In this document: one piece after another, positions 3,722-63,166 of the stretch
Layout of the letters: each line of letters begins with the position of its first letter
Position numbering within the stretch: position 1 is the stretch's first letter
NCBI GenBank assembly: GCA_041390625.1
Contig: JAWKPM010000006.1
Span: 69,131-133,130 of the forward strand
Direction of reading: 5' to 3'
From: Dehalococcoidia bacterium
Lineage (GTDB): Bacteria; Chloroflexota; Dehalococcoidia; UBA2979
DNA: 64,000 nt
Program-made: the position numbers and the translations under genes
The notes under the pieces: model-generated
The model's database searches: none
Seen by the model: the letters and a program-made list of their open reading frames with translations, nothing else
What the model was told of the DNA's origin: nothing

Positions 3722-3812
3722 CGCCCCTTGGGGGCGGCGTCCCGCCCGCCCGCCCCTTCTGGCAGCGAGGGGCTTCGCCCCTCGCGCTCCCCGCTTCCGC
3801 GAGAGGCTCCCC
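3722..3812. repeat. Intergenic palindromic repeat element, copy A
   Basis: Contains ccccttgggggcgg...cccgcccgcccc...gcgaggggcttcgcccctcgcgctcccc. It shares a roughly 60-80 bp core with the copies at 5873, 32822, 50044 and 63091. Located directly 3' of the GNAT stop. Confidence 0.6.
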
Positions 3813-3928
3813 GCGTCGTTGGGGACACGAAGTGGGTGCAAGCATCCGACGAGGGTTCCTCGGGTGCGACACAGGACGGCGGCCCATCGCGAGTCCGCGT
3901 GTCGACGGCGTGTACCTCGGGCGGCGGG

Positions 3929-4192
3929 CTAGCGGAGGGAGTCGTTCCTCGAGAGCCAGCCGAGCTGGCGCATGCGGGCATGGTCGCGGGCGTGGCGGAC
4001 GGCGCTGCGGAAGTCCTCGCCGCACTCGGCGCAGTGGAGGAGCGGGCCGACGCGGTCCTCGTCTGTGACGGGGTGCAGGCGCGCGCGCTCAGCGGCTTCG
4101 GTGGGATCGACCTCGATGGTGGCACGCGGGTGCTCGCAGTCCCAGTAGCAGCCGAAGGCGCAGAAGGTCCGCTCGGAGCGCTCGTCGCTCAT
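3929..4192 (-). CDS. Small Cys/His-rich protein, possible zinc-ribbon. Translationally coupled to the upstream nucleotidyltransferase.
   Basis: Its ATG overlaps the stop of the 4189..4965 gene (ATGA). 87 aa: MSDERSERTFCAFGCYWDCEH...HCAECGED, with paired Cys motifs. Codon usage matches the host. Confidence 0.45.
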   Translation of the reverse strand: MSDERSERTFCAFGCYWDCEHPRATIEVDPTEAAERARLHPVTDEDRVGPLLHCAECGEDFRSAVRHARDHARMRQLGWLSRNDSLR

Positions 4193-4965
4193 TCGAGGAG
4201 TCCCATCGCGGCCTCGATGGCTGGGTCGACGACGGCGCGCTGACGGTCGTCCAGCAGGCGACGGACGGCGCCTGCGGCGAGGACGTAGAGGCGCAGGGCG
4301 GCGCGCGTCTGGGCCTCGAAGTCCTCGTTCGTTGTGCCGAGCGCACAGGCCTGGGTGCTCGCCCACGGCTCGCCGATGGTCCCGGCGACGGCGGCCCAGA
4401 GGCCGTTCTCGCTGTCGTAGAGCAGGCGGTGGTGGACGCTCATGATCCAGGGGAGGCGGAGAGCGAGGACGGAGCGCTGCACGGCCTCGGTGGCGGGCCA
4501 GCCGCGGGCGCGGGCGTTGAGGAGCTTCTGTACCTCCTCGGCGTATCCGGTGATCTGCTCGGCGACCCAGTCGTTGCAGATGGCCTCGCGGGCGTCGGTC
4601 CAGCGCCAGTTGGCCGCGACGCCTCGGAGGGCGTTCGCGATGCCGTCGGGGTCGGCGAGGATGACGGCGTTCCGCCAGCCGGGCACGGCGGCGCCGAGGA
4701 CGGCGGGGTCATCGAAGGATGCCCTGGTGCGTTCGGCGTAGCCCCAGCTGACGGAGACAAGCACCCCGTCGCGCCGCGAGAGGCGGTAGCCGGGGCCGCG
4801 CCCCTCCCCGTCGGCGATCACGCCGAGGTCGAGGTCGGAGTAGGGGCCGGCGTCGCCTCGCGCGTGGCTGCCGGCGAGCCAGACGGCGAGGGCGCCGGGC
4901 TCGCGCATGAGCTCGCCGGCTATGGCGCGGGCGAGGTCGAGTGCCGCCTCGTGAGTCGTGCTCAT
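4189..4965 (-). CDS. Pol-beta-superfamily nucleotidyltransferase domain protein, ANT/KNTase-like
   Basis: GSHARGDAGPYSDLDLGV fits the hG[GS]x9-13Dh[DE]h nucleotidyltransferase motif. 258 aa with a helical C-terminal half. Confidence 0.65.
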   Translation of the reverse strand: MSTTHEAALDLARAIAGELMREPGALAVWLAGSHARGDAGPYSDLDLGVIADGEGRGPGYRLSRRDGVLVSVSWGYAERTRASFDDPAVLGAAVPGWRNAVILADPDGIANALRGVAANWRWTDAREAICNDWVAEQITGYAEEVQKLLNARARGWPATEAVQRSVLALRLPWIMSVHHRLLYDSENGLWAAVAGTIGEPWASTQACALGTTNEDFEAQTRAALRLYVLAAGAVRRLLDDRQRAVVDPAIEAAMGLLE

Positions 4966-5075
4966 GGCGGCAGTATGGCAGACGCACGGCGCGGCCGAGG
5001 GTCCCCTCCTCGATGGCGGTTCGGCCCTCGGACGGGCGCGGCTTGGCGACGAGACTGGAGGCTCGCAATCGCACC

Positions 5076-5828
5076 ATGAAGCAGTTGGAACGAGGAGTCA
5101 TGACGACACCCAAGCACCGCCAGTGGCTCGGAGTCACGACGTTGCTGGCTGCCACGGCGGCCATTGCCGCATTCGCCGCGGTCTTCGGATGGCCGGGGCT
5201 CGCCTCGGCGCAGTCACCGGGCCCCGGAGCGGGCGGTCCTCGCGTGGGCGGCGGCGTCCACGGCGACGCGCCCACGCCCGGCGGGATCGGCCTGATGGTG
5301 ACCACTCGCGACCAGGATCGCGACCAGATCATGCTGCAGCTGCAGGACCAGGACTGTGAGCCGCTCACGCTGGCGACGCTCACCGACGGTCGCTGGCACA
5401 TCTACATCCCCGGCGGTCCGGCTCAGCTGCAGAGCGATTTCCCGCAGCAGCTGGCGGCGGACACGCCGTTCTTCGTGCGTTGCCGCGACGCGGCGCCTGC
5501 GGTGGTTCGCGTTGGCGCGGACGACAGCGGCTCGAGCGTGAGCCTCGAGGTGGGTCAGCGGCTTCGGGTGACGCTGGAGTCGAACCCCACGACCGGGTAC
5601 AGCTGGCAGCTCACCGGCGCGCCGGACCCGGCAGTCCTCGAGCAGGTGCTTGGGCCGATCTACATCGGTGGAGCGTCGGACCTCGTGGGGGCCGCCGGGA
5701 CCGAGACGTTCGACTTCCTCGCGGTGGGAGCGGGTACGACCTCGATCTCGCTGGAGTACGCGCGGCCGTTCGAGGCGAACTCGATGACGGATGCGTGGAC
5801 GATCGATGTGACGGTGACGGCGCCCTAG
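5076..5828 (+). CDS. Secreted chagasin-family (I42) cysteine-peptidase inhibitor with an N-terminal extension
   Basis: Signal peptide MTTPKHRQWLGVTTLLAATAAIAAFAAV. The C-terminal domain has the three chagasin loops: NPTTGYSWQ, GAAGTETFDF and YARPFE. The start may be ATG 5076 or ATG 5100. Confidence 0.8.
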   Translation: MKQLERGVMTTPKHRQWLGVTTLLAATAAIAAFAAVFGWPGLASAQSPGPGAGGPRVGGGVHGDAPTPGGIGLMVTTRDQDRDQIMLQLQDQDCEPLTLATLTDGRWHIYIPGGPAQLQSDFPQQLAADTPFFVRCRDAAPAVVRVGADDSGSSVSLEVGQRLRVTLESNPTTGYSWQLTGAPDPAVLEQVLGPIYIGGASDLVGAAGTETFDFLAVGAGTTSISLEYARPFEANSMTDAWTIDVTVTAP

Positions 5829-5872
5829 CGCCTCGATCTGGGTGCGGGCGGCTGTTCGTTCCGGAGGGTGGA

Positions 5873-5951
5873 CGCCCCTTCGGGGCGGCGGCCCGCCCGT
5901 CCAGCCCTCTGGCTCGGGCGCAGCTAGGGGCCTCGCCCCTCGCGATCCCTC
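5873..5951. repeat. Intergenic palindromic repeat element, copy B
   Basis: gccccttcggggcggcggcccgcccgtcc...ggggcctcgcccctcgcgatccc, directly 3' of the chagasin stop. Confidence 0.55.
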
Positions 5952-6014
5952 TTTTAGGAGCTTGAGGGTTCGCTCCGCGCAGCCTCGATGTGCGTTACTC
6001 CTCGGTGAGCCCGC

Positions 6015-7967
6015 CTAGACGAGAGTGACAGGCTCCCAGCGCTTTTCGAGCTGCTCGCGGAGGCGGGCGGCCTTCTCCGGGCCGTGCTTTGCCGTGACGA
6101 GGTCCACGATCTTGTGGCGGCATTCGCCGTTCACGTCCTGGTGGCCGCAGACGTTGCAGGGGAAGCGCTTGCAGTCGAGCGTGACCTCCTCGTTGAGGGT
6201 CTTCATCCACTCGCCTCGGAGGAAGGGCTTCTGCGTCGCGGAGTCGATGTGGTCCCACGGCAGCGCCTCCCAGAGGTCGCGGTCGCGGTGGGCGTAGTCG
6301 GCGGGGTTCAGGCCGTGCTGGTCGAAGGCCTGCTGCCAGATCGACCAGTCGTGACGCTCGGACCAGGCATCGAAGGTGGCGCCGTTGCGCCAGGCGGTCT
6401 CGATGACGTCGGCGACGCGGCGGTCGCCCCTCGAGAGCACGGCCTCGAGGAGGGACTTCTCGGGGTCCTCCCATGTGAACTGGACGCCGGCGCGCTTGCA
6501 GCCGTCGCGCAGGAGGCGGTGGCGGCGTCGCAGCGTCTCGGCGTCGCACTGGGCGAGCCACTGGTAGGGCGTGTGCGCCTTCGGGATGAAGTTCGAGGTG
6601 GAGACGCGCACGCGGGCGCGGCCGCCGATGTGCCTACGGCCGATGGCCTTCACCTCGGAGGCGATGCGCACGATCTCCTCGACGTCGAAGTCGGTCTCGG
6701 TGGGCTGGCCGACCATGAAGTACATCTTGATCGAGGTCCAGCCGTTGGCGAAGGCGTTCTCAGCGGCTGAGAGCAGCTGCTCCTCGGTGATGAGCTTGTT
6801 GATGGTGTTGCGGAGGCGCTGCGAGCCGGCCTCGGGGGCGAGGGTGAGGGTGTGCTTCTTGCCTCGGGCGACGGCGTTCGCGATCTCGACGGAGAACGAG
6901 TCGACGCGGGTCGAAGGGATCGAGATCTTGAGGCCTCGATCGCCGTAGGCGTCCATGAGGGCGTGGACCATGGGCGCGATCTCGGTGTGGTCGGTCGTGG
7001 AGAGCGACATCAGCGAGAGCTCCTGGTAGCCGGTGTTGTCGAGGAGCTCGCCGGCGGCGCGCACGACCTCCTCGACGGAGCGCTCGCGGGTGGGGCGGTA
7101 GATCATCCCGGCCTGGCAGAAGCGGCAGCCCTGGGTGCAGCCGCGCTGGATCTCGATGGTGGCGCGGTCGTGGACGACCTCCATGAAGGGGACGATCGGC
7201 TTCGTGAGGGGCGGGGGCAGCTGCTGGACGACGCGGCGGACGACGCGCGCGGGAGCGGCCTCGTCGATGGGAACGGTCTCGAGGTAGCGCCCGGCCTCGT
7301 CGTAGCGGGCTTCGTACAGCGAGGGGACGTAGACGCCCCAGACGCGGGCGAGGCGGCGGTAGAGCTCGATGCGGGGCTCGCCCGAGGTCTTCCAGTCGCG
7401 GACGGCGTTCGCCACGTCCTCGATGACCTCTTCGCCCTCGCCGCAGACGAACGCGTCGAAGAAGGCGTGCATCGGCTCCGGCTCGAGGGCGGCCGAGCCG
7501 CCGGCGATGACGATGGTGTCGTCGCGGCCTCGGTCGGCGGCGCGGATGGGGATGCCGGCGAGGTCGAGCAGGTTCAGGACGTTGGTGAAGCAGACCTCGT
7601 ACTGGAGCGTGATGCCGAGGATGTCGAAGTCGCTCACAGGGTGGCGCGTCTCGAGGGAGCGCAGCGGCTCGTTGTGCTCTCGGAGCAGCGCCTCGAAGTC
7701 GGTCCAGGGCGAGAAGACGCGCTCGCAGAGCGTGTCGTCCCGCTTGTTGAGGATGTCGTAGAGGATGGCCAGGCCGAGGTTCGACATGCCGAGGTCGTAG
7801 AGGTCGGGGTAGGCGAGCACCACGCGCAGGTCGCGGGCGTCCCAGTCCTTTGCGATCGAGTGGAGCTCGCCGCCGGCGTAGCGGGTGGGCTTCTGAACGC
7901 GGCCAATCAGTCGCTCGTAGATCGACGAGTCGGAGGTCGCGGCCGGTCGTTCGATGGTGGTGGTCAT
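6015..7967 (-). CDS. Radical SAM protein of the TIGR03960-like uncharacterised family, about 650 aa
   Basis: CTQGCRFC (Cx3Cx2C) radical SAM cluster motif. The six-frame ORF runs to 8669, but homology begins at MTTTIERP (ATG at 7967). Confidence 0.8.
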   Translation of the reverse strand: MTTTIERPAATSDSSIYERLIGRVQKPTRYAGGELHSIAKDWDARDLRVVLAYPDLYDLGMSNLGLAILYDILNKRDDTLCERVFSPWTDFEALLREHNEPLRSLETRHPVSDFDILGITLQYEVCFTNVLNLLDLAGIPIRAADRGRDDTIVIAGGSAALEPEPMHAFFDAFVCGEGEEVIEDVANAVRDWKTSGEPRIELYRRLARVWGVYVPSLYEARYDEAGRYLETVPIDEAAPARVVRRVVQQLPPPLTKPIVPFMEVVHDRATIEIQRGCTQGCRFCQAGMIYRPTRERSVEEVVRAAGELLDNTGYQELSLMSLSTTDHTEIAPMVHALMDAYGDRGLKISIPSTRVDSFSVEIANAVARGKKHTLTLAPEAGSQRLRNTINKLITEEQLLSAAENAFANGWTSIKMYFMVGQPTETDFDVEEIVRIASEVKAIGRRHIGGRARVRVSTSNFIPKAHTPYQWLAQCDAETLRRRHRLLRDGCKRAGVQFTWEDPEKSLLEAVLSRGDRRVADVIETAWRNGATFDAWSERHDWSIWQQAFDQHGLNPADYAHRDRDLWEALPWDHIDSATQKPFLRGEWMKTLNEEVTLDCKRFPCNVCGHQDVNGECRHKIVDLVTAKHGPEKAARLREQLEKRWEPVTLV

Positions 7968-8177
7968 CGGAGGGTCCTCACGTGGGGCTGCGGTGTGGCC
8001 GGGCGCGCGACGCGCCTCGGGCCCCGGGAATCGTGGTCCGCATGCTGGGATTCGTGGTTGCTTCGAGTGATCAGGGTACCCATTGGTCCCAAGCCGACGC
8101 CAGCGTTCGGGGTGATTCTCGGTGCTTGCCGGGTGCCGTACGATGAGGACCTCGCGGAGGGTTTGCTGGAGGCATGG

Positions 8178-8258
8178 ATGCGCAAGGCACTTGGGCTCGT
8201 CGTACTGGTCGGCGTCGTCACCGCCGGTGTCGGCATGTGGTGGTGGCGCAAGGCCTAG
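8178..8258 (+). CDS. Candidate 26-aa single-transmembrane micro-protein
   Basis: GGAGG lies 6 nt upstream of the ATG. Translation is MRKALGLVVLVGVVTAGVGMWWWRKA. It is absent from the ORF track because it is short. It sits in the divergent promoter region between the radical SAM and MBL genes. Confidence 0.3.
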   Translation: MRKALGLVVLVGVVTAGVGMWWWRKA

Positions 8259-8358
8259 CCTCGACGGGGTAGCCCCCGCCTCGAGTCTCACTTCTCGGCA
8301 GCGGAATCTGCGATTCGCGACCTCGCCACGCGAGGTGTGACTGTGCCCGGGAGCAGCC

Positions 8359-9156: not shown

Positions 9157-9192
9157 GCGGTTGCGGGCCGCGTTTAGGGGCTCGGCACCTCG

Positions 9193-9579: not shown

Positions 9580-9582
9580 CGC

Positions 9583-10578: not shown

Positions 10579-10679
10579 CGTGTCTCCTTCGCGTCAGGTT
10601 CGGGGCGCATCGTAGCCGGTGTGGACGCTCGGCACTTGCCCGGCCGGGCGTCGCGTCGGATGCTGGGATCGCTCCAACC

Positions 10680-12231: not shown

Positions 12232-12339
12232 CGGCGTTTCGCCCGTCATTCCAAGCATCTACCTCTCCTTAACGGGCGTGCTGTCACGCTCGATGGTGCG
12301 AATTCGCCATCGAGGACCAGTGCGCCGAATCGAGGCACG

Positions 12340-15225: not shown

Positions 15226-15328
15226 GCGCGGGCCTCGTGCCGGTGTCTACGTCAGGGGCGAGCGTAGATTTCGAGGCGCGTCAAACGCGTAGGAGGGGCG
15301 TATCGATTCGTTTTTGGCCGCGTGGGTG

Positions 15329-15358
15329 GGGTGGACGGCGGAAGTCCGCCGTCCACCC
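15329..15358 (-). promoter_or_regulatory. Perfect 12-bp GC stem-loop immediately downstream of the candidate precursor ORF
   Basis: ggtggacggcgg-aagt-ccgccgtccacc, plus a flanking g/c pair. It lies 12 nt past the stop of the 15370..15477 ORF and upstream of the kinase gene. No U-tract follows, so it is more likely a processing or attenuation hairpin than a full terminator. Confidence 0.4.
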
Positions 15359-15369
15359 GCCCGTCGTGA

Positions 15370-19953: not shown

Positions 19954-20018
19954 GGCCGCGGGCGGTGGTGTCCTCGGTCGCGCGCGGGCCTCGCCGCCTC
20001 GTATGCTCTTGGGGCACG

Positions 20019-20094
20019 CGCCGGTAGCTCAGCGGATAGAGCATCAGTCTTCGGAACTGAGGGTCGGGGGTTCGAATCCCTCCCGGCGCGCCAC
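20019..20094 (+). tRNA. tRNA-Arg, anticodon TCG
   Basis: 7-bp acceptor stem gcgccgg/ccggcgc. D-stem gctc/gagc. Anticodon stem tcagt/actga with loop ctTCGga. T-arm ggggg-ttcgaat-ccctc. Discriminator G. CCA is encoded. Confidence 0.85.
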
Positions 20095-20234: not shown

Positions 20235-21479
20235 GTGCCCCAGTGGCGCGACAGGCTCCTAATGCTGGCGGTCACCGCCTTGGGCATCGTGCTCTCGCCG
20301 ATGGCCTGCAGCGATACGCCCACTGAGCAGCGCACGAGGGAAGCCGTTGTCTCCAGCGGCGGGGATTCTCCGCTGCCCTCGGTCACTTCGGCGGCGACTG
20401 CTGTCACGACGAGAACGGTCGCACCTACTCCCCAGCGGCCGGAGCCTCCGCAGGCCGACGGCACGTTGGCTGATGCGATTGTCGCATTGGCGTCGGCGTG
20501 GACGGGGCTCGATGACGAGGCGTTTGAGGTTGCCTCCGTCGAGGAGTTCGATGCGGACGATTCGTGCCTCGGAGCGGAGGCGCTGTGGCTCTCGTGTGTC
20601 GCGGGTACTTCCGTTGCCATTCGCGTCAGGGTTCGAGCCGGTGGCGTCGTGGAATATCAGTTCCACCTCGACGAGGGCGGTTCGACCGCCGTCTGGGTCC
20701 CTGGGGCGACGATCGAGGGCCGCGTGGAAGACGTCTCAGACGACGGGCTTGTCAGGCTGTCTGGGAGTGGCGATGTGTTCGCCAAGACCATCGAGCCCGG
20801 GTTCATTCAAGGTCAGATCGTACCTGGCACCGTGATTCCCGATGGATCGGCGCTCACCCCGGGCACGTTGGTGACGGCGGGAATCGCGGGAAAACCCAAC
20901 TCGGATGTGACGCTACTCGTGGGAATCGTAGCGACACCGCCCTCTCGGCCTGTACCGCTCCACGATCGAGGTACGCGAACGGGAATCGACAGCGTGGACG
21001 AGGTGATTGACGCCGTCCTCTCGGGCGACATCGATGCGCTCGTTGACCGCGCCTCGATGATCAATGCCCCGTGCGTCAGCGACGTTGTGAGTGAAGAAGA
21101 GATGCACCTTCCGCGCTGCGGTGCGAGCGAGAGCATCGGCTCTCGGCACGAGGTTTTCCCATATGGGCACTGCGATGGTCACCTCATTAGCGACCCACGA
21201 GCGCTGCTGACGGATGCTGTGCGGGAGATCGAAGGTCTGTACGCAGTGGTTCGTATTGACCAAGAAGACGGTCTGGACCCGCTCAAGAATTTCGTCGATG
21301 GCGATGTGCGCGTGGTGTTCGCCTCATCTCCGAGCGCGCCGACACGCACTGCGCGGGGCTATGCGTTCGGCCTCAGCGAGGATGGGGCGATCGTGTCCGC
21401 CCGATGGGGTTGTCACACCCCAGAATCTCTGGCCTCCGGACCGGGGGTGGCCGAGCCGATACTCGCGCCTTTGCGCTGA
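20235..21479 (+). CDS. Putative lipoprotein, hypothetical
   Basis: Signal peptide with lipobox LSPMAC-S. 414 aa. The gene has visibly lower GC than its surroundings. Confidence 0.55.
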   Translation: MPQWRDRLLMLAVTALGIVLSPMACSDTPTEQRTREAVVSSGGDSPLPSVTSAATAVTTRTVAPTPQRPEPPQADGTLADAIVALASAWTGLDDEAFEVASVEEFDADDSCLGAEALWLSCVAGTSVAIRVRVRAGGVVEYQFHLDEGGSTAVWVPGATIEGRVEDVSDDGLVRLSGSGDVFAKTIEPGFIQGQIVPGTVIPDGSALTPGTLVTAGIAGKPNSDVTLLVGIVATPPSRPVPLHDRGTRTGIDSVDEVIDAVLSGDIDALVDRASMINAPCVSDVVSEEEMHLPRCGASESIGSRHEVFPYGHCDGHLISDPRALLTDAVREIEGLYAVVRIDQEDGLDPLKNFVDGDVRVVFASSPSAPTRTARGYAFGLSEDGAIVSARWGCHTPESLASGPGVAEPILAPLR

Positions 21480-21600
21480 CGGCAGAGGCGCGAGTGCGGC
21501 TGCTCCATCCGCACCGGCCCTCAACCCACGCGAAGATCTTTGGCCAGCGACTTCGAGGGCGCGCCAGCTTCTCGCTTCGAACACCTTCTTGTCGTGGTTG

Positions 21601-32727: not shown

Positions 32728-32821
32728 GAGGGAGTTCCTTGCTGTTCGCTGCTGCTCGATCGGGACGGGAGTGTCCCCGTTTCGTGTGGTCGCGACAACC
32801 GTGGGAGGCTGAGGTCCGCGC

Positions 32822-32952
32822 TCCGGGCGGGCAGCCCGCCCACCCGCCCCTCTTCAGCGAGGGGCGCAGCCCCTCGCGCTCCCCGGGGTCCGAATCGTCT
32901 GCGGACGGCGCACCTCGCGCGGTGCGAGGGGCCCTGCCCCTCGCATCCCCCT
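32822..32952. repeat. Intergenic palindromic repeat element, copy C, with a duplicated hairpin module
   Basis: cccgcccacccgcccctcttcagcgaggggcgcagcccctcgcgctcccc, plus a second gcgaggggccctgcccctcgc hairpin. Located 3' of the thiamine-pyrophosphate (TPP) enzyme gene. Confidence 0.55.
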
Positions 32953-35513: not shown

Positions 35514-37970
35514 GTGAAGGACGCGCATTCGATGAATTGGGACGAGCGCGAACGAACCTCGGGCGTCGTCGCAGACTGGATTGCCTCCGGTCGGCGCCCG
35601 TACGCGGACGTGCTTCGCAACCTCGGAGAGCTGCTGGTCGCCATCGCCGAACACGATGGCGCCGAGCGCACCTCGCCACCCCAGCGGGCGCGGGGCGATG
35701 CAGTCACGGCCGGCGGTCCAGCCCGCGCGGCCAGGGAGGGAACCATGACTGAGACGACGGAGCGGGCCACGCGGGAGGCGTTCTTCCCTCCGCCGTTGCC
35801 ATCGGCCGAGGCGCCCTCGACCGAGGACATCGCGATGATGCTCGCGGACGCGCGCGCGCGTGCGCATGAGCTGATCGACCAGTCGGTTGCCCGGGCGAAG
35901 GAGATGCTGGAGCGACGACAGCCGGCCGTCGACGAGGCGGCGACGAACGCGCAGCGTGAGGCGCAGCGCCTCGCCCTCGAGCGGCTGCGGCGATCCGTGG
36001 CCGAGATCCACTCCGACATTCGTGCGCTGCACGCGCGCCTCGATGGGATCGAGGGGCTGCTGCGACAGCGCCGCGAGCCCGACACCTCGACGAGCGCGGC
36101 GAACTCGGGCGGTACGCCGACCGCGACCGCACGCCCATCGGCCGCCGCCGCCTCGACGGCTGCGCCCTCGGCCTCGAAGGCCGCCGCACCGGCAGCGAAG
36201 TCGACGGCGCCGAGCGCCACGACCGCGCCGGCGGCCAGTACCACCGACTCGGCTGCGCCGACGGCGCGCCCGACGATGCCGGCTCGGAGTGAGTCGGAGC
36301 GCACTTCGACCTCGAACACCGCGAGCTCGACGGCCACGACCGGCTCGACCGCGACGCCGGCGCGCGACGAGCGCGCTGAGGACGCCGCCAAGCAGGAGGC
36401 GTCCTCGGACGCTGGCACGTCCTCGGCGACGGCCACGCCGGATGCGGTCGCCGCCGTGCGGGCCGAGCGGACCGAGCGCAGCTCCGAGGAGCGCGCCGCC
36501 CTCGCGGCCGGTGCGCGGGCCTCGCTGGCCACGGCTACCGACGAGGACGACGCGAAGGCCGAGACCTCGGGTGGCGCGAAGTCCGAGGACGCGGAGCGAG
36601 CGGGCACCTCGACGGCGGCGACGGCTTCGGCGCCGACGGACGCGCGCAGCGAGGCGACTTCCGCCGCCGCCTCGACGGCCGCGACCTCGGACGCGGAGCG
36701 AACCGCCGAGCAGCACGCGGAGCCCGCGACGGCGACGCCGAGCGAGGCAGCCGCGCGGGCGACGAGCGCTGAGACGAGCGAGCCGCCCGTCGAGCAGGCG
36801 CACCGCCGGATCGAGGACGCCGTCGCCACGGCGCTCACGGCCGCGCGGAATGCCGCGATAGCCGCCGCGAAGCCGGCGCTGCCCTCGAGCCTGGCCGGCA
36901 GCGGGCGTGACCGCGAGACCTCGAACCTCGACGAGTCGACGGAGGCGCCGCCTGCCAGTTCGGCCACGACGACCCGTACGCCGGCCTCGGTCGGGTCTGG
37001 CGCGCGCAACGAGCTGCAGAGCGCGGCGCCGGCGGAGCCTCGGACGAGCGAGGCCTCCAAGGAGCAGACGTCATCGAGCTCGACGGGTGCGACCTCGACG
37101 TCCGCCGCGAGCACCCCGAGCGCGGCTCGCAGCGAGGCGCCTGCCTCGGCGCGACCGGCCGGGCTGTGGACGCCGCCGACGGTGGCGCCGCCAACGCCCG
37201 CTCAGCCTCGAGCGGAGGCGCCCGCTGAGGTTGCTTCGAGCGAGGCGACGCAGAAGAAGGACGAGTCCGAGGCGGCACGTGACGCCTCGAGTGAGGCAGT
37301 GGAGCGCACCGTGGCGGCCTCGGCGCTGCGTCAGGAGAGCGAGCGGCGCTCGCCGCTGACGCCCACGCCGCGGCCGTTCACGCCCGTGACGCCGCCGAGC
37401 GGGAGCGCGACGCCGACCGTCGAGCGGGTCGTCGAACCTGCCTCGCAGGGGCTGCCGCGATTCGCGACGCCGGTGCAGTCCGGTAGCGAGCGGGCCACCG
37501 AAGAGGCCGAGGCGACCTCACCTCGGACGTCGGCGCCGCCGGCCTCGTTGCGGCCGAACCCGCCGACCCTGACGCCGCCGCGCGGCCACTCGGACGCGCC
37601 GCCGGCGGAGACCTACGTCCCGGGCAAGGCCGCCGAGGCGCTCACTCGTGAGGAACCGGCCTCGGAGGCCGCGGAGAGCAGCAGCAAGTCGACTGCCTTC
37701 CCCGGTGGAGGTGCGATCGTCGTTCGCGTGTCGCCCATCTCGGGCTTCCAGGGGCTGATGCGCGTGCAGGACGCGATTGCGAACCTGCGAGAGGTGCGCG
37801 AGGCCGCCGTCGAGGCGTACGCTCGGGGCGAGGCGCAGCTGCGCGTCGCGCTGGTCGACGAACTCGCGCCGGAGCGCCTGACCAAGGCGCTCTCGGACGG
37901 GCTCGGCCAGGACGCGAAGGTTGAGGCAGCCTCGGTCGATGAGCGCACCATGCGGGTGACGCTGGCGTAG
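35514..37970 (+). CDS. Large (818 aa) Ala/Ser/Thr/Glu-rich low-complexity protein with short structured N- and C-terminal regions
   Basis: About 80% of the protein is a compositionally biased disordered region. The last ~90 aa (AIVVRVSPISGFQGLMRVQDAIANLREVREAAVEAY...) look folded. It lies between the response regulator and the histidine kinase. Confidence 0.55.
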   Translation: MKDAHSMNWDERERTSGVVADWIASGRRPYADVLRNLGELLVAIAEHDGAERTSPPQRARGDAVTAGGPARAAREGTMTETTERATREAFFPPPLPSAEAPSTEDIAMMLADARARAHELIDQSVARAKEMLERRQPAVDEAATNAQREAQRLALERLRRSVAEIHSDIRALHARLDGIEGLLRQRREPDTSTSAANSGGTPTATARPSAAAASTAAPSASKAAAPAAKSTAPSATTAPAASTTDSAAPTARPTMPARSESERTSTSNTASSTATTGSTATPARDERAEDAAKQEASSDAGTSSATATPDAVAAVRAERTERSSEERAALAAGARASLATATDEDDAKAETSGGAKSEDAERAGTSTAATASAPTDARSEATSAAASTAATSDAERTAEQHAEPATATPSEAAARATSAETSEPPVEQAHRRIEDAVATALTAARNAAIAAAKPALPSSLAGSGRDRETSNLDESTEAPPASSATTTRTPASVGSGARNELQSAAPAEPRTSEASKEQTSSSSTGATSTSAASTPSAARSEAPASARPAGLWTPPTVAPPTPAQPRAEAPAEVASSEATQKKDESEAARDASSEAVERTVAASALRQESERRSPLTPTPRPFTPVTPPSGSATPTVERVVEPASQGLPRFATPVQSGSERATEEAEATSPRTSAPPASLRPNPPTLTPPRGHSDAPPAETYVPGKAAEALTREEPASEAAESSSKSTAFPGGGAIVVRVSPISGFQGLMRVQDAIANLREVREAAVEAYARGEAQLRVALVDELAPERLTKALSDGLGQDAKVEAASVDERTMRVTLA

Positions 37971-38090
37971 CCGCCGTCGCGGCTGGCTGGAGGACGCGGC
38001 ATCTTCGATCAGCTCGCGTTCGATCCAGAGGTCGGCTCGACGCTCCGACGCATCTCGGCCGCCACGCGCCGCCTGCAACTGGCGGCGCTC

Positions 38091-46685: not shown

Positions 46686-46908
46686 TGGTCGTTCGCTCGT
46701 CAACGCGCCAGTCCTCCCCTGGGGGCAGGCGGTTCGCACCGAGTGCGCCTGCCGTGATGTTCCGAAGCCGTTCAGCGGATGTCTGCCGAACGTGGCGCCA
46801 GTATACGCCCCCCGTCAGCGCGCCTGTCCGGGGCTCGACGAGCCCCCTCGATATGCAACGAGCCCCGCGTGAGCGGGGCTCGTGACTTCGCGGCGGAGGA
46901 CGGTTCGC

Positions 46909-50028: not shown

Positions 50029-50043
50029 CCGGACCTCGGACCG

Positions 50044-50146
50044 GAGCATGGACGGCCCTTTGGGCCGGCGAGCCCACCCGCCCACCCTTCTTGTGCGAGG
50101 GGCTTCGCCCCTCGCGCTCTCCTCGGAACGGGCGCCGGCGCGAGAG
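50044..50146. repeat. Intergenic palindromic repeat element, copy D
   Basis: ggccctttgggccggcgagcccacccgcccacccttcttgtgcgaggggcttcgcccctcgcgctc, between convergent gene ends. Confidence 0.6.
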
Positions 50147-50326
50147 CCTCGCGCTGGGGGGCTGCCGACACGCGTCGCGAGGGATTGCCCGCGCATCCTC
50201 TCGGGAGCATGTCGACGGCGAGTGCCGCAGCGGCCGGGTCCTTTGCGCCGCGACATCGTGCGGGGGACCGCCGCCCTCGGGCATGCGAGTGGCGCTCGGT
50301 GTCTGGAAGTCGAGCCCCCGGGCCTC

Positions 50327-55653: not shown

Positions 55654-56646
55654 CTACGGGAAGCGGTCCGGGTACATCGCTCGCGCCATCGCCTCGATGG
55701 CCTCGGCGAGGCGGGGGCCAGGCCGGTTCGAGGTGTCGGGGTCGACGGCGAAGACGCGGCCATCGACGACGGCGGTCACGGCGTCCCAGCCGGGTCTCGC
55801 CCGCAGCGATTCCAGGCTCTCGCCGAAGTCGGCGTCGGCGAGGAAGACGACCTCGGGATCGGCATCGATCACGGCCTCGGCGGTGAGCTGGGGGAACTGC
55901 GTCGTCGCGCCTTCGGCGACGTTCTGGCCCTTGAGCGCCTCGATCAGCCCGCCCACGAACGAGTCGGGCGCGACGCTGTAGAGGTCGGCCGAGATCTCGA
56001 AGTAGACGCGCGGGCCGGCATCGACCTCGGCGAGCGCGCCCGTCACGGCATCGACGCGCGCGTGCATGTCATCGAGGACCGCCTGTGCGCCGTCCTCGTG
56101 GCCGGTCACGCGGCCGAGGAATTCGATCTGGTCGTAGACCTCGTCGAGCGAGTCGGCGGAGCCGAGGTAGACGACGGGCAGGCCGGCGTTGCGGAAGACC
56201 TCGACCTGCTCGTCCTGGCGTGAGGTGAGGAGCACGAGGTCGGGCTCGAACGAGAGCGCGGCCTCGGGATCGGGGTCGGAGTACTCGACCCCCTGCAGGC
56301 TGGCGGCCTGCGGCGGGTAGTCGGAGAAGCGGTCGACGGCGACGACCTGCTCGCCGGCGCCGATGGCGAAGAGGATCTCGGTGCCACCGGGGGAGTAGGA
56401 GATGATCGCGTCCGGCTGGGCGGGGATCTCGACCTCGGTGCCGCCGTAGTCGACGACGGTGAGCGGGAACGAGCTCGCCTCGGCGGTCGCCGACGCGGCC
56501 TCAGTGGAGGTCGCGGCCTCGGACGTCGATGTTGCGGTCGGTTCGTCGTCGTCGCTGCAGGCCACCAGGGCGAACGCGAGCAAGGCGCCGACGCCGAGCA
56601 CGAGTGTGCGCCAGAGGCGCGGGCGGGGCAGGGAATCGAATCTCAT
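55654..56646 (-). CDS. Second class-III ABC substrate-binding lipoprotein
   Basis: ATG with GGAGG upstream. Lipobox LVAC-S. Ser/Thr/Ala-rich linker. BtuF-like fold. No adjacent permease of its own. Confidence 0.75.
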   Translation of the reverse strand: MRFDSLPRPRLWRTLVLGVGALLAFALVACSDDDEPTATSTSEAATSTEAASATAEASSFPLTVVDYGGTEVEIPAQPDAIISYSPGGTEILFAIGAGEQVVAVDRFSDYPPQAASLQGVEYSDPDPEAALSFEPDLVLLTSRQDEQVEVFRNAGLPVVYLGSADSLDEVYDQIEFLGRVTGHEDGAQAVLDDMHARVDAVTGALAEVDAGPRVYFEISADLYSVAPDSFVGGLIEALKGQNVAEGATTQFPQLTAEAVIDADPEVVFLADADFGESLESLRARPGWDAVTAVVDGRVFAVDPDTSNRPGPRLAEAIEAMARAMYPDRFP

Positions 56647-56904
56647 CGCTTCGACCTCCACATGCGGCAGAGGTCGATGCACACGAGCCCGGCGCGAGGG
56701 AGGGTGCGCCGAACCTCGTGCCGTCGCCTCGTCCTCGAAGGCTAGACACGGCGCAGGTCGGCGACCTGGCTTGCCGCCTCGGTGTCCGGGGACGCCGGGC
56801 GGATCACAGTTGCGGGACAGCGCCGGCATCTCACCGGCTTCCCCGAGCACTGCGCCGGGAGGGAGCCTAGCACCGCGCGGGACGTCCGGCGAGACGGGCG
56901 AGCG

Positions 56905-58277: not shown

Positions 58278-58523
58278 TGCGGTCGATCGTACCGTGCGCT
58301 GGAGTGGCGCGTGAGTGTGCCTCGATACGGACGTGAGACGTCGGGAGAGCCGCACAGCAGTTCGGATCGAAATGGAACTGATACGCGGTGTTGATTGCGA
58401 AGCTGACGAATCGCTAGCGCTCAACCAAGGGGGTGACTATCGTACGCGACGAACGAGCCGTTGAAGCGGCGCACGATCGCTCCACTCCGCGTCGGGTGTC
58501 CGGGAAAGTGAGTCGTCCGCAGT

Positions 58524-58781
58524 ATGCCGAAGTTCACGAAGATGAACCCGGGTGAGGTTGTCGTGGGTCGCGGTCGCGCCGCCCAGGAGGCGCGCAAGCC
58601 CTTCATCGAGGCGTTGAAGTCCTCGGAAGCCGGCCGCATCGAGCTCGAGCGTGGCGAGAAGCCCGCGACCGTGAAGCGGCTGCTGCAGGACTCCGCGAAG
58701 GAAGTCGGCGTGCGCATTCGCTCGTCGTGGAGCGACAACCAGCAGCGCGTGCTGTTGTGGAAGAAGGTCGGCGCGCGCTAG
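58524..58781 (+). CDS. Small hypothetical protein, 85 aa
   Basis: Clean ORF with host-like codon usage after an AT-richer ~240-bp intergenic region. No motif recognised. Confidence 0.45.
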   Translation: MPKFTKMNPGEVVVGRGRAAQEARKPFIEALKSSEAGRIELERGEKPATVKRLLQDSAKEVGVRIRSSWSDNQQRVLLWKKVGAR

Positions 58782-58815
58782 CGCCGGCCTTCGAGGCATC
58801 GCCTCGGGGCCTGTC

Positions 58816-59979: not shown

Positions 59980-59987
59980 GGCGCTGC

Positions 59988-60668
59988 CTAGAACTCGGAC
60001 GCGGGCAGCTGGGCCTGGAACTGCGCCAGGTCGAGGCGGGCGCGGAACGCCTCGACGTCGAGGCCCATGATCTGGAGGTCGTGGAGGGCGTCGTCGCGGT
60101 CGATCACCTGACCTCGGAGCACCGCCTCGCGGACGAAGCCCATGCGCTCGAAGGCGCGGATGGCGGCCTCCTGGTCGGTCGTCATGCGGGCGATCATCTT
60201 GCGGACGCCGCGCTCCTGGGCGATGGCGAACGCCTGCTCGGTCAGGAGCTGACCGAGACCGACGCCGCGCAGGCTGGGCGAAACGAGCACTCGGATCTCC
60301 GCCATGTGGCGCGCCCACGTCATCGGGTCCGACGCCACAGTGGTGTAGCCGACGATCTCGGCGCCGCGGACGACGACCACCGTGACGTAGCGACTTGCCG
60401 CTACGTCCTCGATCCAGGCGTCGACCTGGTCGGGCTGGGTGATGTCGCGGCGCAGGAAGAGGAGGTCATGCTCGGGCAGCGCGCGGGCGAAGGTCAGCAT
60501 CGCCTCGCGGTCGCCGGCCTCGAGCAGGCGGAGCGTCAGCTCCTCGCCTCGGAGAGTGACGGTCGCGGGGTAGTCGAGCCGCACGGCACGCCGCTGCGAC
60601 TCGGCCTGGCGCCCGAGGTCCTGGGCCGGCCCCCCGAGGATGCGGCCCAGCGTCTGTAGCAGTCCCAT
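59988..60668 (-). CDS. GNAT-family N-acetyltransferase
   Basis: ATG 60668 with GAAGGAGG 5 nt upstream. LRGVGLGQLLTEQA motif A. Confidence 0.75.
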   Translation of the reverse strand: MGLLQTLGRILGGPAQDLGRQAESQRRAVRLDYPATVTLRGEELTLRLLEAGDREAMLTFARALPEHDLLFLRRDITQPDQVDAWIEDVAASRYVTVVVVRGAEIVGYTTVASDPMTWARHMAEIRVLVSPSLRGVGLGQLLTEQAFAIAQERGVRKMIARMTTDQEAAIRAFERMGFVREAVLRGQVIDRDDALHDLQIMGLDVEAFRARLDLAQFQAQLPASEF

Positions 60669-60712
60669 CGCGACCTCCTTCGCCCCCCGACCGCGAGCGT
60701 AGGGACTTGAGC

Positions 60713-60734
60713 GCTCGTGTGCGCGCTCACGAGC
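60713..60734. promoter_or_regulatory. Palindrome in a divergent promoter region
   Basis: gctcgtg-tgcgcgct-cacgagc (7-bp arms) between the divergently transcribed GNAT and CoA-transferase genes. Confidence 0.25.
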
Positions 60735-60801
60735 ACGAGCCGACCGAACCGGCGCGACGCGCGGTCGCGGATATGATGCGGCGGCGAGCGAGGAGGAACG
60801 A

Positions 60802-61980
60802 ATGGCCTCAGCCTTCGAGGGCGTGCGCGTCCTCGACTTCACGCGCTACCAGCAGGGGCCGTTCGCCGGCGTGCTGCTCGCCGACATGGGCGCCGAGGTG
60901 GTGAAGGTCGAGGAGCCGGGTGGCGAGCCGGGGCGCGCGAACGGCCTCGATGCCAGCGGGTTCTCGGCGTACTTCGAGGCGCACAACCGCGGCAAGCGGA
61001 GCATGGTCCTCGATCTGCGTGTGGCCGAGTCGCGGGACGCCATTCGGCGCCTCGTGCCGGGCTTCGACGTCGTGATCGAGAACTTCCGGCCGGGCGTGAT
61101 GGAGCGCTGGGGCCTCGGGTACGACGACCTGCGGGCGCTACGGCCGGACATCATCCTCGCCTCGGGGTCGGCATGGGGCCGCGAGGGACCCTGGGCGCAG
61201 CGGCCGGGCTACGACCACGTCGCGCAGGCGCTGAGCGGCGTGATGGTGGAGCAGGGCGGCGGACCGGAGCACGAGCCGCACGCGCTCATCGGCGGGTTCG
61301 CGGACCAGATCGGCGCGATGCTCCTCGCATACGGCGTCTCGAGCGCGCTCTTCGTGCGAGAGCGGAGCGGCCGGGGCCAGCACGTCGACGTCGCGTTGAT
61401 AGGCGCGATGATGGCGCTGCAGGCGATGCCGGTGACGCGCTACCTGCGGACGGGGAACCAGCCGGGCTTCGAGTTCCGGCGCGCGGCGACGTACACGCAC
61501 TACCGCGCCTCGGATGGGCGCTACGTCGCGATCGCCGCGAACACGCAGGCGATGTGGGAGCGCTGCGCCGAGGCGATGGGGCACCCCGAGTGGCGCGAGG
61601 ACCATCGGTTCGTCGGGCCGTTCGAGCGGGCGGAGCACAAGCTCGCCCTCGTCGATGCGTTCGAGCGGGCCTTCCTCGAGCGGCCCTCGGCGGAGTGGCT
61701 CGAGCGGCTGACGGCGCACGACGTGCCGAACGCGCCGGTGCTCGACTACGCCGGGGTGGCGGCGCACGAGCAGTACTGGGCGAACGGCTACCTGCAGGAG
61801 ATCGAGTCGCCGAACCTCGGGCCGATGCGCGTGCCGGGGCCGCCCGTGCGCATGAGCGCGACGCCGCCTCGAATCCAGGGGGCGGGGCCGGAGCTCGGGC
61901 AGGACACGGAGGCCGTGCTCCTCGATGGCGGCTTCACGTGGCCAGAGATCGAGGCGCTGCGGGAGGCCGGGGGGTTCTGA
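60802..61980 (+). CDS. CoA-transferase family III (CaiB/BaiF) protein
   Basis: GVRVLDFTRYQQGPFAGVLLADMGAEVVKVE N-terminal signature. Conserved Asp region. 392 aa. Confidence 0.9.
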   Translation: MASAFEGVRVLDFTRYQQGPFAGVLLADMGAEVVKVEEPGGEPGRANGLDASGFSAYFEAHNRGKRSMVLDLRVAESRDAIRRLVPGFDVVIENFRPGVMERWGLGYDDLRALRPDIILASGSAWGREGPWAQRPGYDHVAQALSGVMVEQGGGPEHEPHALIGGFADQIGAMLLAYGVSSALFVRERSGRGQHVDVALIGAMMALQAMPVTRYLRTGNQPGFEFRRAATYTHYRASDGRYVAIAANTQAMWERCAEAMGHPEWREDHRFVGPFERAEHKLALVDAFERAFLERPSAEWLERLTAHDVPNAPVLDYAGVAAHEQYWANGYLQEIESPNLGPMRVPGPPVRMSATPPRIQGAGPELGQDTEAVLLDGGFTWPEIEALREAGGF

Positions 61981-62098
61981 GTCCCGGCTTGCCTCCCCAC
62001 ATCGGCGTCCGGTTGGCGTAGAATCCCGCTCCCATTGGAGTGCGACCATCGCTCGTAGCGGAGCGTCTTCCATCACCAGCCAGCTGAGGAACGACCAC

Positions 62099-62272
62099 GT
62101 GGCCAACGTGCTGGAGGCGGCGATTCGCTACATCGCCGAGGAGCGGGCGTACACGCTCGAATCCCAGCAGGCGAACGACGAGCTCGTGATCACGCTGCGG
62201 CTCGCGGAACCGGCCTCGTACCACGCGACCCTCGAGCAGGTGACCGCGGAGCGACCGCCTCGCGTGGACTGA
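62099..62272 (+). CDS. Small ORF, 57 aa, hypothetical
   Basis: GTG start with GAGGAA 8 nt upstream. Translation VANVLEAAIRYIAEERAYTLESQQANDELVITLRLAEPASYHATLEQVTAERPPRVD. Upstream of the ubiE/menG-like gene. Confidence 0.3.
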   Translation: MANVLEAAIRYIAEERAYTLESQQANDELVITLRLAEPASYHATLEQVTAERPPRVD

Positions 62273-62318
62273 TCTCACTCGTGCGGCGCACTTCGGTGCC
62301 CTGCCCTACCCTCGACGC

Positions 62319-63062
62319 GTGACGCACCAGCCGGACACCGAGGCTCCCGAGCGGCTCTTCGAGGGCGACGTCGACCGCGCGCCCTACGTGCGCTCGATGT
62401 TCGGCGACATCGCCGGGCGCTACGACCTGATGAACACGGTGATGACCGGCGGGCGCCACCACGCGTGGCGACGCGCTGCGGCCGAGGCGCTGGTCCGGCC
62501 GGGCGATCGCGTCGTCGATGTGGGCTGTGGGACCGGGGACCTCTCCTTCGCGTGCCTCGAGGCGGGGGCGGGGTCGGTCCTCGGGCTCGACTTCGCGGCG
62601 CCGATGCTCGACCACGCGCGTCGGAAGGCCGCCGACCGCGGGCTGCGGGCGACGTTCGGCCTCGGCGACGCGACGCGGCTGCCGCTGGCCGACGCCTCGG
62701 TGGACGCGTGGTGCTCGGCCTTCGTCGTCCGCAACATCCCGGACCTCGATGCCGCGCTGTCCGAGGCGTGGCGGGTGCTGCGGCCGGGCGGGCGCCTCGC
62801 GGTCCTCGAGATCCCGAAGCTCGAGCCGAGCGTGCTGCGGCCGGCGATCCGGCTGCACTTCGCACGGGTGGTGCCGCTGGTGGGGCGCGTGATCTCGGGC
62901 CACGACAGCGCGTACCGCTACCTGCCGGTGTCGGTGGACCACTTCCTCACGCCGAGCGAGTTCACCTCGCGGTTGCGAGGCGCCGGGTTCGAGGTGCGGT
63001 CGGTGCGGCGGATGATGCTCGGGACGATCGCGCTCCACGTGGCGGAGCGACCGGCCTCGTAG
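62319..63062 (+). CDS. Demethylmenaquinone/ubiquinone C-methyltransferase (UbiE/MenG family)
   Basis: SAM motif I VVDVGCGTG, post-I LGLDF, and a UbiE-like N-terminus YDLMNTVMTGGRHHAWRR. Confidence 0.85.
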   Translation: MTHQPDTEAPERLFEGDVDRAPYVRSMFGDIAGRYDLMNTVMTGGRHHAWRRAAAEALVRPGDRVVDVGCGTGDLSFACLEAGAGSVLGLDFAAPMLDHARRKAADRGLRATFGLGDATRLPLADASVDAWCSAFVVRNIPDLDAALSEAWRVLRPGGRLAVLEIPKLEPSVLRPAIRLHFARVVPLVGRVISGHDSAYRYLPVSVDHFLTPSEFTSRLRGAGFEVRSVRRMMLGTIALHVAERPAS

Positions 63063-63090
63063 GCCGACTCCCAGTCGACGGAGCGAGGTC

Positions 63091-63166
63091 GGCCCTTCGG
63101 GCCGGCGAGCCCACCCGCCCACCCCTTCTCAAGCGAGGGGCTTCGCCCCTCGCGCTCCCCTCCGGA
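63091..63166. repeat. Intergenic palindromic repeat element, copy E
   Basis: ggcccttcgggccggcgagcccacccgcccaccccttctcaagcgaggggcttcgcccctcgcgctcccc, between convergent gene ends. Confidence 0.6.

Follow-up and report, generated by a model that had tools for sequence, protein, structure and literature searches.

A dispersed two-hairpin repeat at gene ends

We analyzed a 64,000-nucleotide window of the Dehalococcoidia bacterium assembly GCA_041390625.1 (contig JAWKPM010000006.1, positions 69,131 to 133,130 of the forward strand), in which an initial annotation had described five copies of a hairpin-forming intergenic repeat, all at gene 3' ends. Positions given here are those of the window. The UbiE protein encoded here is identical to MEZ4502589.1, from a metagenome-assembled Dehalococcoidia genome, and two more of the window's proteins map to the contig that holds it. 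The window is 69 to 74% G+C, has a GC skew of +0.05 to +0.14 in each 4-kb bin, and carries about equal numbers of genes on the plus and minus strands. The open reading frames (ORFs) that flank the five copies, c1 to c5, are all real genes according to Pfam. Four of the copies (c1, c2, c4, and c5) lie between convergent genes and start about 10 to 32 nt past the stop codon of the plus-strand gene. The fifth, c3, lies between two minus-strand genes that have consecutive NCBI protein accessions, with no annotated gene between them. Convergent junctions account for about 9 of the roughly 56 junctions in the window, and a share of four copies in five is greater than expected by chance (binomial P ~0.003). 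The convergent junctions that lack an element are short, at -4 to 71 nt, with one exception.

Each copy contains a hairpin, here called hairpin B, with the form GCGAGGGGC-N3-GCCCCTCGC. With up to two mismatches allowed, this pattern occurs six times in the window, starting at 3765, 5923, 32857, 32924, 50095, and 63133, and every time on the plus strand; dinucleotide-preserving shuffles gave a chance expectation of 0.06. We then had a covariance model, trained on nine copies, scan the whole window with filters off. It returned exactly five full-length matches, of 65 to 97 bits, all intergenic and all on the plus strand, and also picked up an extra hairpin B half-module at 32911-32944. In a self-BLAST of the window, this five-copy family was the sole dispersed repeat. 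The similarity between copies is limited to 60 to 93 nt at 73 to 89% identity and ends at the element edges; therefore, the copies are not segmental duplications. A concatenated six-frame translation of the element, used as a query against 5.8 billion proteins to pick up spurious ORFs over copies, had no match. Rfam gave no match to the element, either at the gathering threshold in the window or at E ≤ 5 on three element-bearing loci, and no pertinent paper turned up in a literature search by motif strings and for repetitive extragenic palindrome (REP)-like repeats of Chloroflexi or Rhodobacteraceae. We conclude that the family is genuine, that it had not been catalogued before, and that it belongs to a familiar general kind of bacterial intergenic repeat.

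The outline drawn by the initial annotation was borne out in most respects. The copies do keep one orientation whatever the strand of the flanking gene (five of five on the plus strand), each has two palindromes, which we recovered as hairpins A and B in alignments and folds, and the module reported as duplicated at 32822-32952 is a second hairpin B in direct repeat at 32911-32951. The boundaries needed correction, because the true 5' start lies 10 to 15 nt further out, at a conserved CCGGAGC. A proposed degenerate relative at 15318-15365 lacks hairpin B and matched the model on the opposite strand with only 20.7 bits (E ~0.025). We dropped it from the family; it is better described as a 13-bp hairpin with no relation to the element, or at best as a questionable relic.

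An alignment of 11 copies resolved the element into a mosaic of about 90 nt with five parts. Read 5' to 3' on the plus strand, the order is a lead, hairpin A, a GGCGAG linker, a C-tract, a spacer of 3 to 4 nt, hairpin B, and a tail. The 5' lead is (C)CGGAGC-N3-GGAC. Hairpin A has about 8 bp and a 3-nt loop; it varies in sequence and keeps its pairing, and three of its pairs show compensatory changes, such as GCCCC/GGGGC versus GGCCC/GGGCC. The C-tract is a quasi-repetitive (CCCR)3-4 run ending in CCTTCT. Hairpin B, with 9 bp and a 3-nt loop, is invariant in sequence apart from one mismatch in an arm of c2, and its tail, GCTCCCC, is often followed by (N)CGG. Copy c2 is the most diverged of the five and also has an 8-nt insertion ahead of hairpin B.

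Both hairpins formed in RNA folds and in DNA folds of either strand, and the plus-strand fold has the architecture of a hairpin, an unpaired C-tract, and a second hairpin. The fold z-scores were modest (-1.1 to -4.1) against a very GC-rich background. The two ends of the element could pair in a closing stem, CCGGAGC/GCTCC..GG, but this is imperfect, at about 5 bp with 73% of cells paired, and RNAalifold favored a rival pairing of the hairpin A 3' arm with the C-tract. On the minus strand, the C-tract reads GGG-N-GGG-N-GGG-N-GGG, which is a G-quadruplex (G4) motif. The 64 kb hold only four such motifs with single-nucleotide loops, and these are in c1, c3, c4, and c5, all on the minus strand. 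The motif is thus present in four of the five window copies; c2 and two orthologous copies in a related strain lack it.

No U-tract follows either hairpin: hairpin B runs into GCTCCCC and hairpin A into GGCGAGCCC. Therefore, the elements are not canonical intrinsic terminators. A terminator scan made no call at any element, and no promoter-like sequence was found at the elements. Canonical terminators with a hairpin and a T-run were not in excess in the 15 kb from 49 to 64 kb, where we found 2 and expected 2.0. Other intergenic regions of the window contain unique, near-perfect, GC-rich hairpins of 10 to 14 bp without T-runs, several of them directly past stop codons (Table 1). Judged by their sequences, such U-less hairpins seem to be the usual gene-end structure in this genome. 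One further hairpin stands just 3' of c4 and is possibly a collapsed hairpin B remnant, with which it has GCGAG/CTCGC arms in common.

Table 1. Features of the repeat copies, their neighboring genes, and related hairpins (window positions unless a locus is named)
Feature	Location or genes	Strand	Basis or remark
c1 full element	3707-3800	+	covariance model, 69.9 bits
c1 neighbors	GNAT acetyltransferase gene (+, stop 3705); 87-amino-acid (87-aa) gene (-, stop 3929)		convergent
c1 hairpin A, GGCGCCCC-TTG-GGGGCGGC type	3720-3738	+	alignments, folds
c1 G3N1 G-quadruplex motif, GGGGCGGGCGGGCGGG	3741-3756	-	motif scan
c1 hairpin B (GCGAGGGGC-TTC-GCCCCTCGC) with GCTCCCC tail	3765-3792	+	sequence
c2 full element	5858-5958	+	covariance model, 66.3 bits
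c2 neighbors	chagasin-family inhibitor gene (+, stop 5828); radical S-adenosylmethionine (SAM) gene (-, stop 6015)		convergent
c2 hairpin B (GCTAGGGGC-CTC-GCCCCTCGC) with GATCCCT tail	5923-5950	+	sequence
c3 full element	32801-32892	+	covariance model, 64.7 bits
c3 neighbors	Gfo/Idh/MocA oxidoreductase gene (-, start 32727); thiamine pyrophosphate (TPP) enzyme gene (-, stop 32989)		two minus-strand genes
c3 G-quadruplex motif, GGGGCGGGTGGGCGGG	32835-32850	-	
c3 first hairpin B with GCTCCCC tail	32857-32884	+	
c3 second hairpin B, direct repeat (GCGAGGGGC-CCT-GCCCCTCGC with ATCCCCC)	32911-32951	+	22 bits, model positions 46-79
c4 full element	50038-50130	+	covariance model, 97.4 bits
c4 neighbors	pterin-4a-carbinolamine dehydratase gene (+, stop 50028); alpha/beta hydrolase gene (-, stop 50327)		convergent
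c4 G-quadruplex motif, GGGTGGGCGGGTGGG	50073-50087	-	
c4 hairpin B with GCTCTCC tail	50095-50122	+	
Hairpin GCGCGAG-AGC-CTCGCGC just 3' of c4	50135-50157	+	within the stretch unalignable with L001
c5 full element	63075-63168	+	covariance model, 95.9 bits
c5 neighbors	UbiE/MenG methyltransferase gene (+, stop 63062); truncated-globin gene (-, stop 63266)		convergent
c5 hairpin A (GTCGGCCC-TTC-GGGCCGGC)	63088-63106	+	sequence, folds
c5 G-quadruplex motif, GGGGTGGGCGGGTGGG	63110-63125	-	
c5 hairpin B with GCTCCCC tail	63133-63160	+	
Unique U-less hairpins	1674-1702, 12289-12314, 15329-15358, 21461-21495, 46858-46883, 58763-58792		
28-nt core examples	L025:5022-5140, L034:4440-4760, L051:5440-5560		
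Further tandem-array loci of hairpin B with GCTCCCC	L065:4780-4940, L096:6900-7020		

Copies elsewhere, strain comparison, and orientation

The family extends beyond the window. Orthologues of c4 (on L001) and c5 (on L135) are present in a strain from JGI sample 3300027987 that is 95.2% identical in nucleotide sequence. At unrelated loci, the 2.2-kb metagenome contig L123, the sole contig matched in a metagenome scan with a family-specific pattern, has two copies 1.26 kb apart, and the Chloroflexi metagenome-assembled genome (MAG) VGPB01 has at least three, two on L030 and one on L120. One of these, L030b, begins immediately past a stop codon. No copy was present in about 71 kb from relatives at 62 to 81% protein identity (L124, L126, L129, L131, and L136). 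Therefore, the family is real, dispersed, and lineage restricted, and the initial annotation's own ground for refutation, a lack of further copies, does not apply. Paralogous copies are only 48 to 89% identical in the 11-copy alignment, which indicates an old family with no trace of a recent burst. Several short-read contigs break at or inside copies or hairpin B: L002 ends 4 nt past a stop codon, right before c4; L030 begins inside a copy; and L014, L056, and L114 end at hairpin B. These contig ends are consistent with the assembly breaks expected of multicopy repeats. A different inverted repeat (CTTCGACAGGCTCAG ... CTGAGCCTGTCGAAG) lies downstream of UbiE in L129 (1700-1790), a relative free of the family, and may represent another repeat family.

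The relatives L124, L126, and L129 have the gene order GFO-holin-SbcCD-NurA / UbiE / luciferase-lactamase-radical SAM-87aa-hydrolase-TPR. All five element-bearing junctions of the window are adjacencies missing from these relatives, and about 10 conserved junctions are element free; this contrast is partly confounded, as the conserved junctions are mostly tight and operon internal. One site is empty in two relatives. The chagasin(+)/radical-SAM(-) junction measures 186 nt with c2 in the window and 41 and 51 nt, without an element, in L137 and L138, and the L137 radical-SAM C terminus is 94% identical to that of the window. The insertion boundaries at c2 are not visible, because the spacers of the window and of the relatives cannot be aligned. 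The initial annotation had pointed to target-site duplications as something to look for. There is none at any of the 11 copies: the longest words common to both flanks measure 5 to 8 nt, do not adjoin the element, and do not exceed what chance would give. Separately, we observed that the compact order NurA-UbiE-luciferase-lactamase-radical SAM-87aa-hydrolase of the relatives is split in the window into at least five blocks over 60 kb (3929-63266), and that the block edges host all five repeat copies.

Comparison with the 95.2% identical strain separated the constrained parts of the element from the variable part. Conservation begins exactly at the CGGAGC of the lead, and both hairpins are identical. 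In c5 versus L135, six substitutions fall within 10 nt of the C-tract (window 63105-63120), against a background divergence of about 5%. In c4 versus L001, 7 of 22 C-tract positions are substituted, making a different small hairpin (window 50060-50090 versus L001:4450-4480). Thus, the hairpins are the constrained parts, and the C-tract with its G4 motif is hypervariable and not conserved. Because these substitutions are clustered, the tract may have undergone hypermutation locally, slipped, or been converted by a different copy. Immediately 3' of c4, the intergenic DNA of the two strains is also completely unalignable, about 190 nt in the window (50130-50319) versus about 110 nt in L001 (4520-4629), and the flanking genes there are 95 to 96% identical.

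We next consider orientation, taking GC skew as a proxy for replication direction. For 10 independent copies (c1 to c5, L123a, L123b, L030a, L030b, and L120), the strand that carries the C-tract and GCTCCCC is the GC-skew-positive strand in 10 of 10 cases, with skews of +0.09 to +0.11. Copies c3, L123a, and L123b run antisense to a neighboring gene and are still concordant with the skew. At convergent junctions, a copy facing either way would have a gene upstream, yet six of six family copies follow the skew. In sequence, the G-rich strand corresponds to the leading strand, and so to the template from which the lagging strand is made. Ton-Hoang et al. (2010, Cell 142:398) reportedly found that single-strand-DNA transposition of IS200/IS605 leads to an orientation bias toward the lagging-strand template. 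The constant orientation relative to skew is the main argument for strand-specific mobilization or selection.

A hairpin B core in other phyla

A scan of genome contigs with hairpin B alone yielded at least 120 loci, mostly from Rhodobacteraceae. All counts for core loci in this section are among the matches listed. Of 128 occurrences, 99 have GCTCCCC next to the palindrome or GGGGAGC at its other end, which rules out chance. Many genera of Rhodobacteraceae carry the resulting 28-nt core, GCGAGGGGC-N3-GCCCCTCGC-GCTCCCC, as a high-copy module between genes (L003-L122). The core also occurs in Acetobacteraceae (Roseococcus and Falsiroseomonas), in Novosphingobium, in Actinomycetota (Acrocarpospora and Actinoplanes), in other Chloroflexi, and in several MAGs. 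The core was missing from the 2.9 million viral contigs searched and hardly ever occurred on plasmids. It matched no Rfam family, and the literature search found no paper carrying its sequence.

The Rhodobacteraceae intergenic repeat is, by sequence, the closest relative of the Dehalococcoidia family. It has the identical 28-nt core with a variable hairpin 5' of it, and it lies about 40 nt downstream of co-oriented genes, often at convergent junctions, with a GC-skew polarity. It differs in that its hairpin A is TTCGGATCGnC...GnCGATCCGA, it has no (CCCR)n tract, and it continues as GGAGTATTTT..CAAGAAGAAGGGG into a U-rich, terminator-like tail. Its consensus is hairpin A' - CCGGG - B - GCTCCCCGGRGTATTT..CAAGAAGAAGGGG, with GGRGTATTT preceding CAAGAAGAAGGGG. 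A co-oriented gene lies upstream of the core in 55 of 70 cases (79%), at a median of 37 to 47 nt past the stop codon. The strand with GCTCCCC is the G-rich strand at 67 of 92 loci. By strand-balanced skew at third codon positions (GC3), the polarity holds at 41 of 62, and in convergent contexts only, at 23 of 29 (P = 0.002).

Tandem arrays of the core were seen in two species. In Acrocarpospora macrocephala (L028:5800-6030), repeats of about 66 nt with hairpin B and GCTCCCC form an array just downstream of a tRNA gene (L028:5636-5708), and Salipiger marinus has arrays of a hairpin B plus GCTCCCC unit with a period of about 46 nt.

The core could be the recognition site of a putative conserved, strand-specific factor, such as a domesticated nuclease resembling HUH or RAYT enzymes or a protein involved in termination or RNA processing, common to Rhodobacteraceae, Acetobacteraceae, Chloroflexota, and Actinomycetota. 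We consider this idea speculative and rather unlikely. If it were true, each lineage would have assembled its own mosaic around the core, with the Dehalococcoidia adding a hypermutable (CCCR)n/G4 spacer, and the core would punctuate genomes in the direction of replication and would not be a selfish repeat private to one lineage. That the same 28 nt recur across phyla is the lead most worth following.

Possible origin and roles of the family

On balance, and with some reserve, we favor the view that the family is a lineage-specific, non-autonomous dispersed repeat resembling REPs and bacterial interspersed mosaic elements (BIMEs), which has probably spread in a strand-specific manner and probably gives stem-loops at transcript 3' ends. 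In this scenario, copies would have entered permissive spaces between the 3' ends of genes and caused no target-site duplication. Their constant orientation on the strand with the lagging-strand-template sequence suggests that mobilization may have been strand specific, acting on single-stranded DNA and recognizing hairpins, by a HUH/Y1-transposase type of activity as in IS200/IS605 and REP-RAYT. The recognition module would be the sequence-invariant hairpin B with its tail. After insertion, two stable stem-loops would lie 3' of the co-oriented gene, and they would be present too in the antisense transcript of the convergent gene. Since stem-loops would thus stand near the gene ends in both transcripts, they probably act as transcript 3'-end structures, either aiding pausing and termination or blocking 3' exonucleases.

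The initial annotation had offered two classes, REP/BIME-like and MITE-like (miniature inverted-repeat transposable elements), and our results support only the first, with MITE-like taken in the classical sense. Like REPs and BIMEs, which are known from Enterobacteria and Pseudomonas, the family has a GC-rich palindrome that is strongly over-represented extragenically (6 versus 0.06), mainly at gene 3' ends and convergent junctions; it has the mosaic palindrome-linker-palindrome build of BIMEs; and it is lineage specific, lacks target-site duplications, and apparently inserted at the c2 site, which holds no element in two relatives. REPs also have a short, conserved, single-stranded "head" beside the stem, and here GGGGAGC on the minus strand takes that place. 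The REP head is said, after work by Nunvar in 2010 and Messing in 2012, to be a conserved GTAG/GTGG tetranucleotide 5' of the stem. The flank here is instead GGGGAGC (on the plus strand, GCTCCCC following the stem), so that only the position is analogous. REPINs are units arranged as inverted doublets, and a single-copy RAYT (Y1 transposase) gene in the same genome is flanked by the repeats (PMC5581495); reported roles of REPs, in work cited in that paper, include termination, mRNA stability, and translation. In contrast to REPINs, hairpins A and B are unrelated, each copy has one hairpin B, and the sole doublet, in c3, is direct and not inverted. Unlike in REPs and BIMEs, a quasi-repetitive (CCCR)n/G4 tract separates the hairpins of this family. 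Membership in REP/REPIN-RAYT therefore fails, because there is neither a GTAG head nor an inverted doublet.

Subterminal hairpins and the lack of target-site duplication are also features of IS200/IS605 elements, as is an orientation bias relative to the replication strand, seen here, with skew as the proxy, as 10 of 10 copies on the GC-skew-positive strand. In IS200/IS605, the left-end and right-end hairpins are alike, and insertion occurs 3' of a fixed tetra- or pentanucleotide. Here, however, hairpins A and B differ, and the 5' flanks have neither a common motif nor a conserved target. No TnpA or TnpB gene was found in Pfam scans of 30 window genes or in a rough phmmer search of the fetched loci.

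Several observations weigh against the REP/BIME-like reading. No transposase of any kind was found: there was none among the 30 window genes by Pfam, and no Y1 transposase matched in any fetched locus by phmmer, a weak test with rough IS200 and RAYT queries. The proposed closing stem is weak, with just 73% of cells paired. Clean boundaries of an insertion are missing at the empty c2 site, and deletion in the relatives is also possible. Both loci compared between strains (c4/L001 and c5/L135) carry the element, so there is no presence/absence difference. The 48 to 89% identity of paralogues gives no sign of recent bursts, and the orientation statistics come from four contigs only. With regard to the transcript-end role, no U-tract follows either hairpin, and mycobacterial RNA polymerase required a U-tract for intrinsic termination in vitro, according to PMC3993855.

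Unlikely, but still tenable, is that the element is not mobile and acts at the RNA level only, as a sequence-conserved, factor-assisted terminator or 3' untranslated region (3'-UTR) element whose orientation follows the gene it serves. TRIT of Mycobacterium would be the model and is, by analogy, the closest functional counterpart of the family. As described in PMC3152330, TRIT comprises 147 conserved, U-less, mostly bidirectional hairpins at gene ends, and its authors inferred a need for an additional factor. Both are sequence-conserved, U-less palindromic hairpins at gene termini in a high-GC host. By the same description, TRIT is found only in Mycobacterium and is a single hairpin centered at about -8 from the stop codon, overlapping the coding sequence. 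The Dehalococcoidia element, set against that description, is a two-hairpin mosaic that starts at +10 to +32, apparently differs in sequence, and keeps a single strand orientation. A terminator would suit the four of five window copies that begin 10 to 32 nt past the stop of a co-oriented gene, and L030b, which lies directly past a stop. It would also suit the core elsewhere: among the matches listed, 79% trail a co-oriented gene, with a median distance of about 40 nt to its stop codon, and in Rhodobacteraceae a TATTTT run follows the core. Hairpins that stay unchanged between strains while the surrounding intergenic DNA becomes unalignable fit as well. However, c3, L123a, and L123b are antisense to the adjacent gene yet concordant with the skew, and a bidirectional terminator would be free to face either way in convergent junctions, where six of six family copies and 23 of 29 listed core matches nevertheless follow the skew. 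Identity of 80 to 89% over about 85 nt at unrelated loci calls for a copy mechanism and not convergence. A generic hairpin role does not call for sequence identity, given that the hairpins of other window genes are unique, and the element has no U-tract.

A quite improbable alternative is a replication-polar structural site at the DNA level, in which a hairpin or G-quadruplex is bound by a chromosome-maintenance factor (gyrase/IHF type, as for BIMEs, or a polar signal) and orientation is selected relative to fork direction rather than set at insertion. The concordance of all 10 copies with GC skew would follow from this, as would the persistence of core polarity in convergent contexts among the matches listed. 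It would also accommodate the location of all four single-nucleotide-loop G4 motifs of the 64 kb within elements, on the minus strand, and the conservation of hairpin B in sequence, beyond structure. But the G4 motif is lost in L001 and L135, through 6 to 7 substitutions in the tract, and is absent from c2; therefore, it does not appear to be under purifying selection, and we set the G-quadruplex aside as the selected function. The five sites in 64 kb are bunched at convergent gene ends and not evenly spaced as architectural signals would be, and there is no known binding protein.

Small regulatory RNAs (sRNAs) with C-rich motifs exist in Firmicutes and Alphaproteobacteria. By analogy, each copy might give rise to a 3'-UTR-derived sRNA whose unpaired, C-rich seed (CCCACCCCUUCU), placed between a 5' hairpin and a 3' hairpin of terminator-like form, pairs with purine-rich, Shine-Dalgarno-like sites. 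The plus-strand order of hairpin, unpaired C-tract, and hairpin has the right architecture, and the copies lie immediately past co-oriented genes. We nonetheless regard this as very improbable: the elements have no promoter-like sequence and no Rfam match, sub-threshold ones included; no part of the element differs more between strains than the putative seed; and orientation tracks GC skew and not genes. A classical MITE moved by a DDE transposase, with terminal inverted repeats (CCGGAGC/GCTCCGG) and target-site duplications, is hardly credible and was largely refuted, since its short inverted termini, though they exist and pair in the c4 fold of an element of MITE-like size (about 90 nt), reach about 5 bp with 73% of cells paired where about 10 bp or more is expected, 11 of 11 copies lack a target-site duplication, and strict single orientation is unexpected for cut-and-paste insertion of double-stranded DNA.

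The family has three unusual traits: its strict GC-skew polarity, its hypervariable, G4-capable spacer, and a core common to several phyla. The minus-strand G4 motif, the link to GC skew, the hypervariability of the C-tract between strains, and the cross-phylum core are additions to the initial annotation. Few Dehalococcoidia have been cultured, and an element that is defined by its sequence and follows stop codons directly offers a concrete target for work on transcript ends in Chloroflexota. Such repeats break metagenome assemblies and mark differences in gene order among relatives, so that they matter for assembly quality and genome plasticity, and the strict skew polarity could serve to infer replication direction on MAG contigs.

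The window also holds features unconnected with the repeat. A cobalamin riboswitch aptamer (RF00174, 39.9 bits) lies at 56760-56843 on the minus strand, upstream of the minus-strand gene 55654-56682. The tRNA-Arg at 20018-20090 is the only tRNA confirmed by both ARAGORN and Rfam. ARAGORN also called an 84-nt tRNA-Ala(CGC) at 37980-38063 on the plus strand, at which the Rfam tRNA model was silent at the gathering score; this call, directly past the stop of a 741-amino-acid ORF (35745-37970), could be spurious or could mark a tRNA of atypical form. Two pairs of direct repeats of about 95 nt, 73 to 75% identical, lie in coding regions (36142-36233/36661-36761 and 41112-41208/41583-41676) and are probably internal protein repeats.

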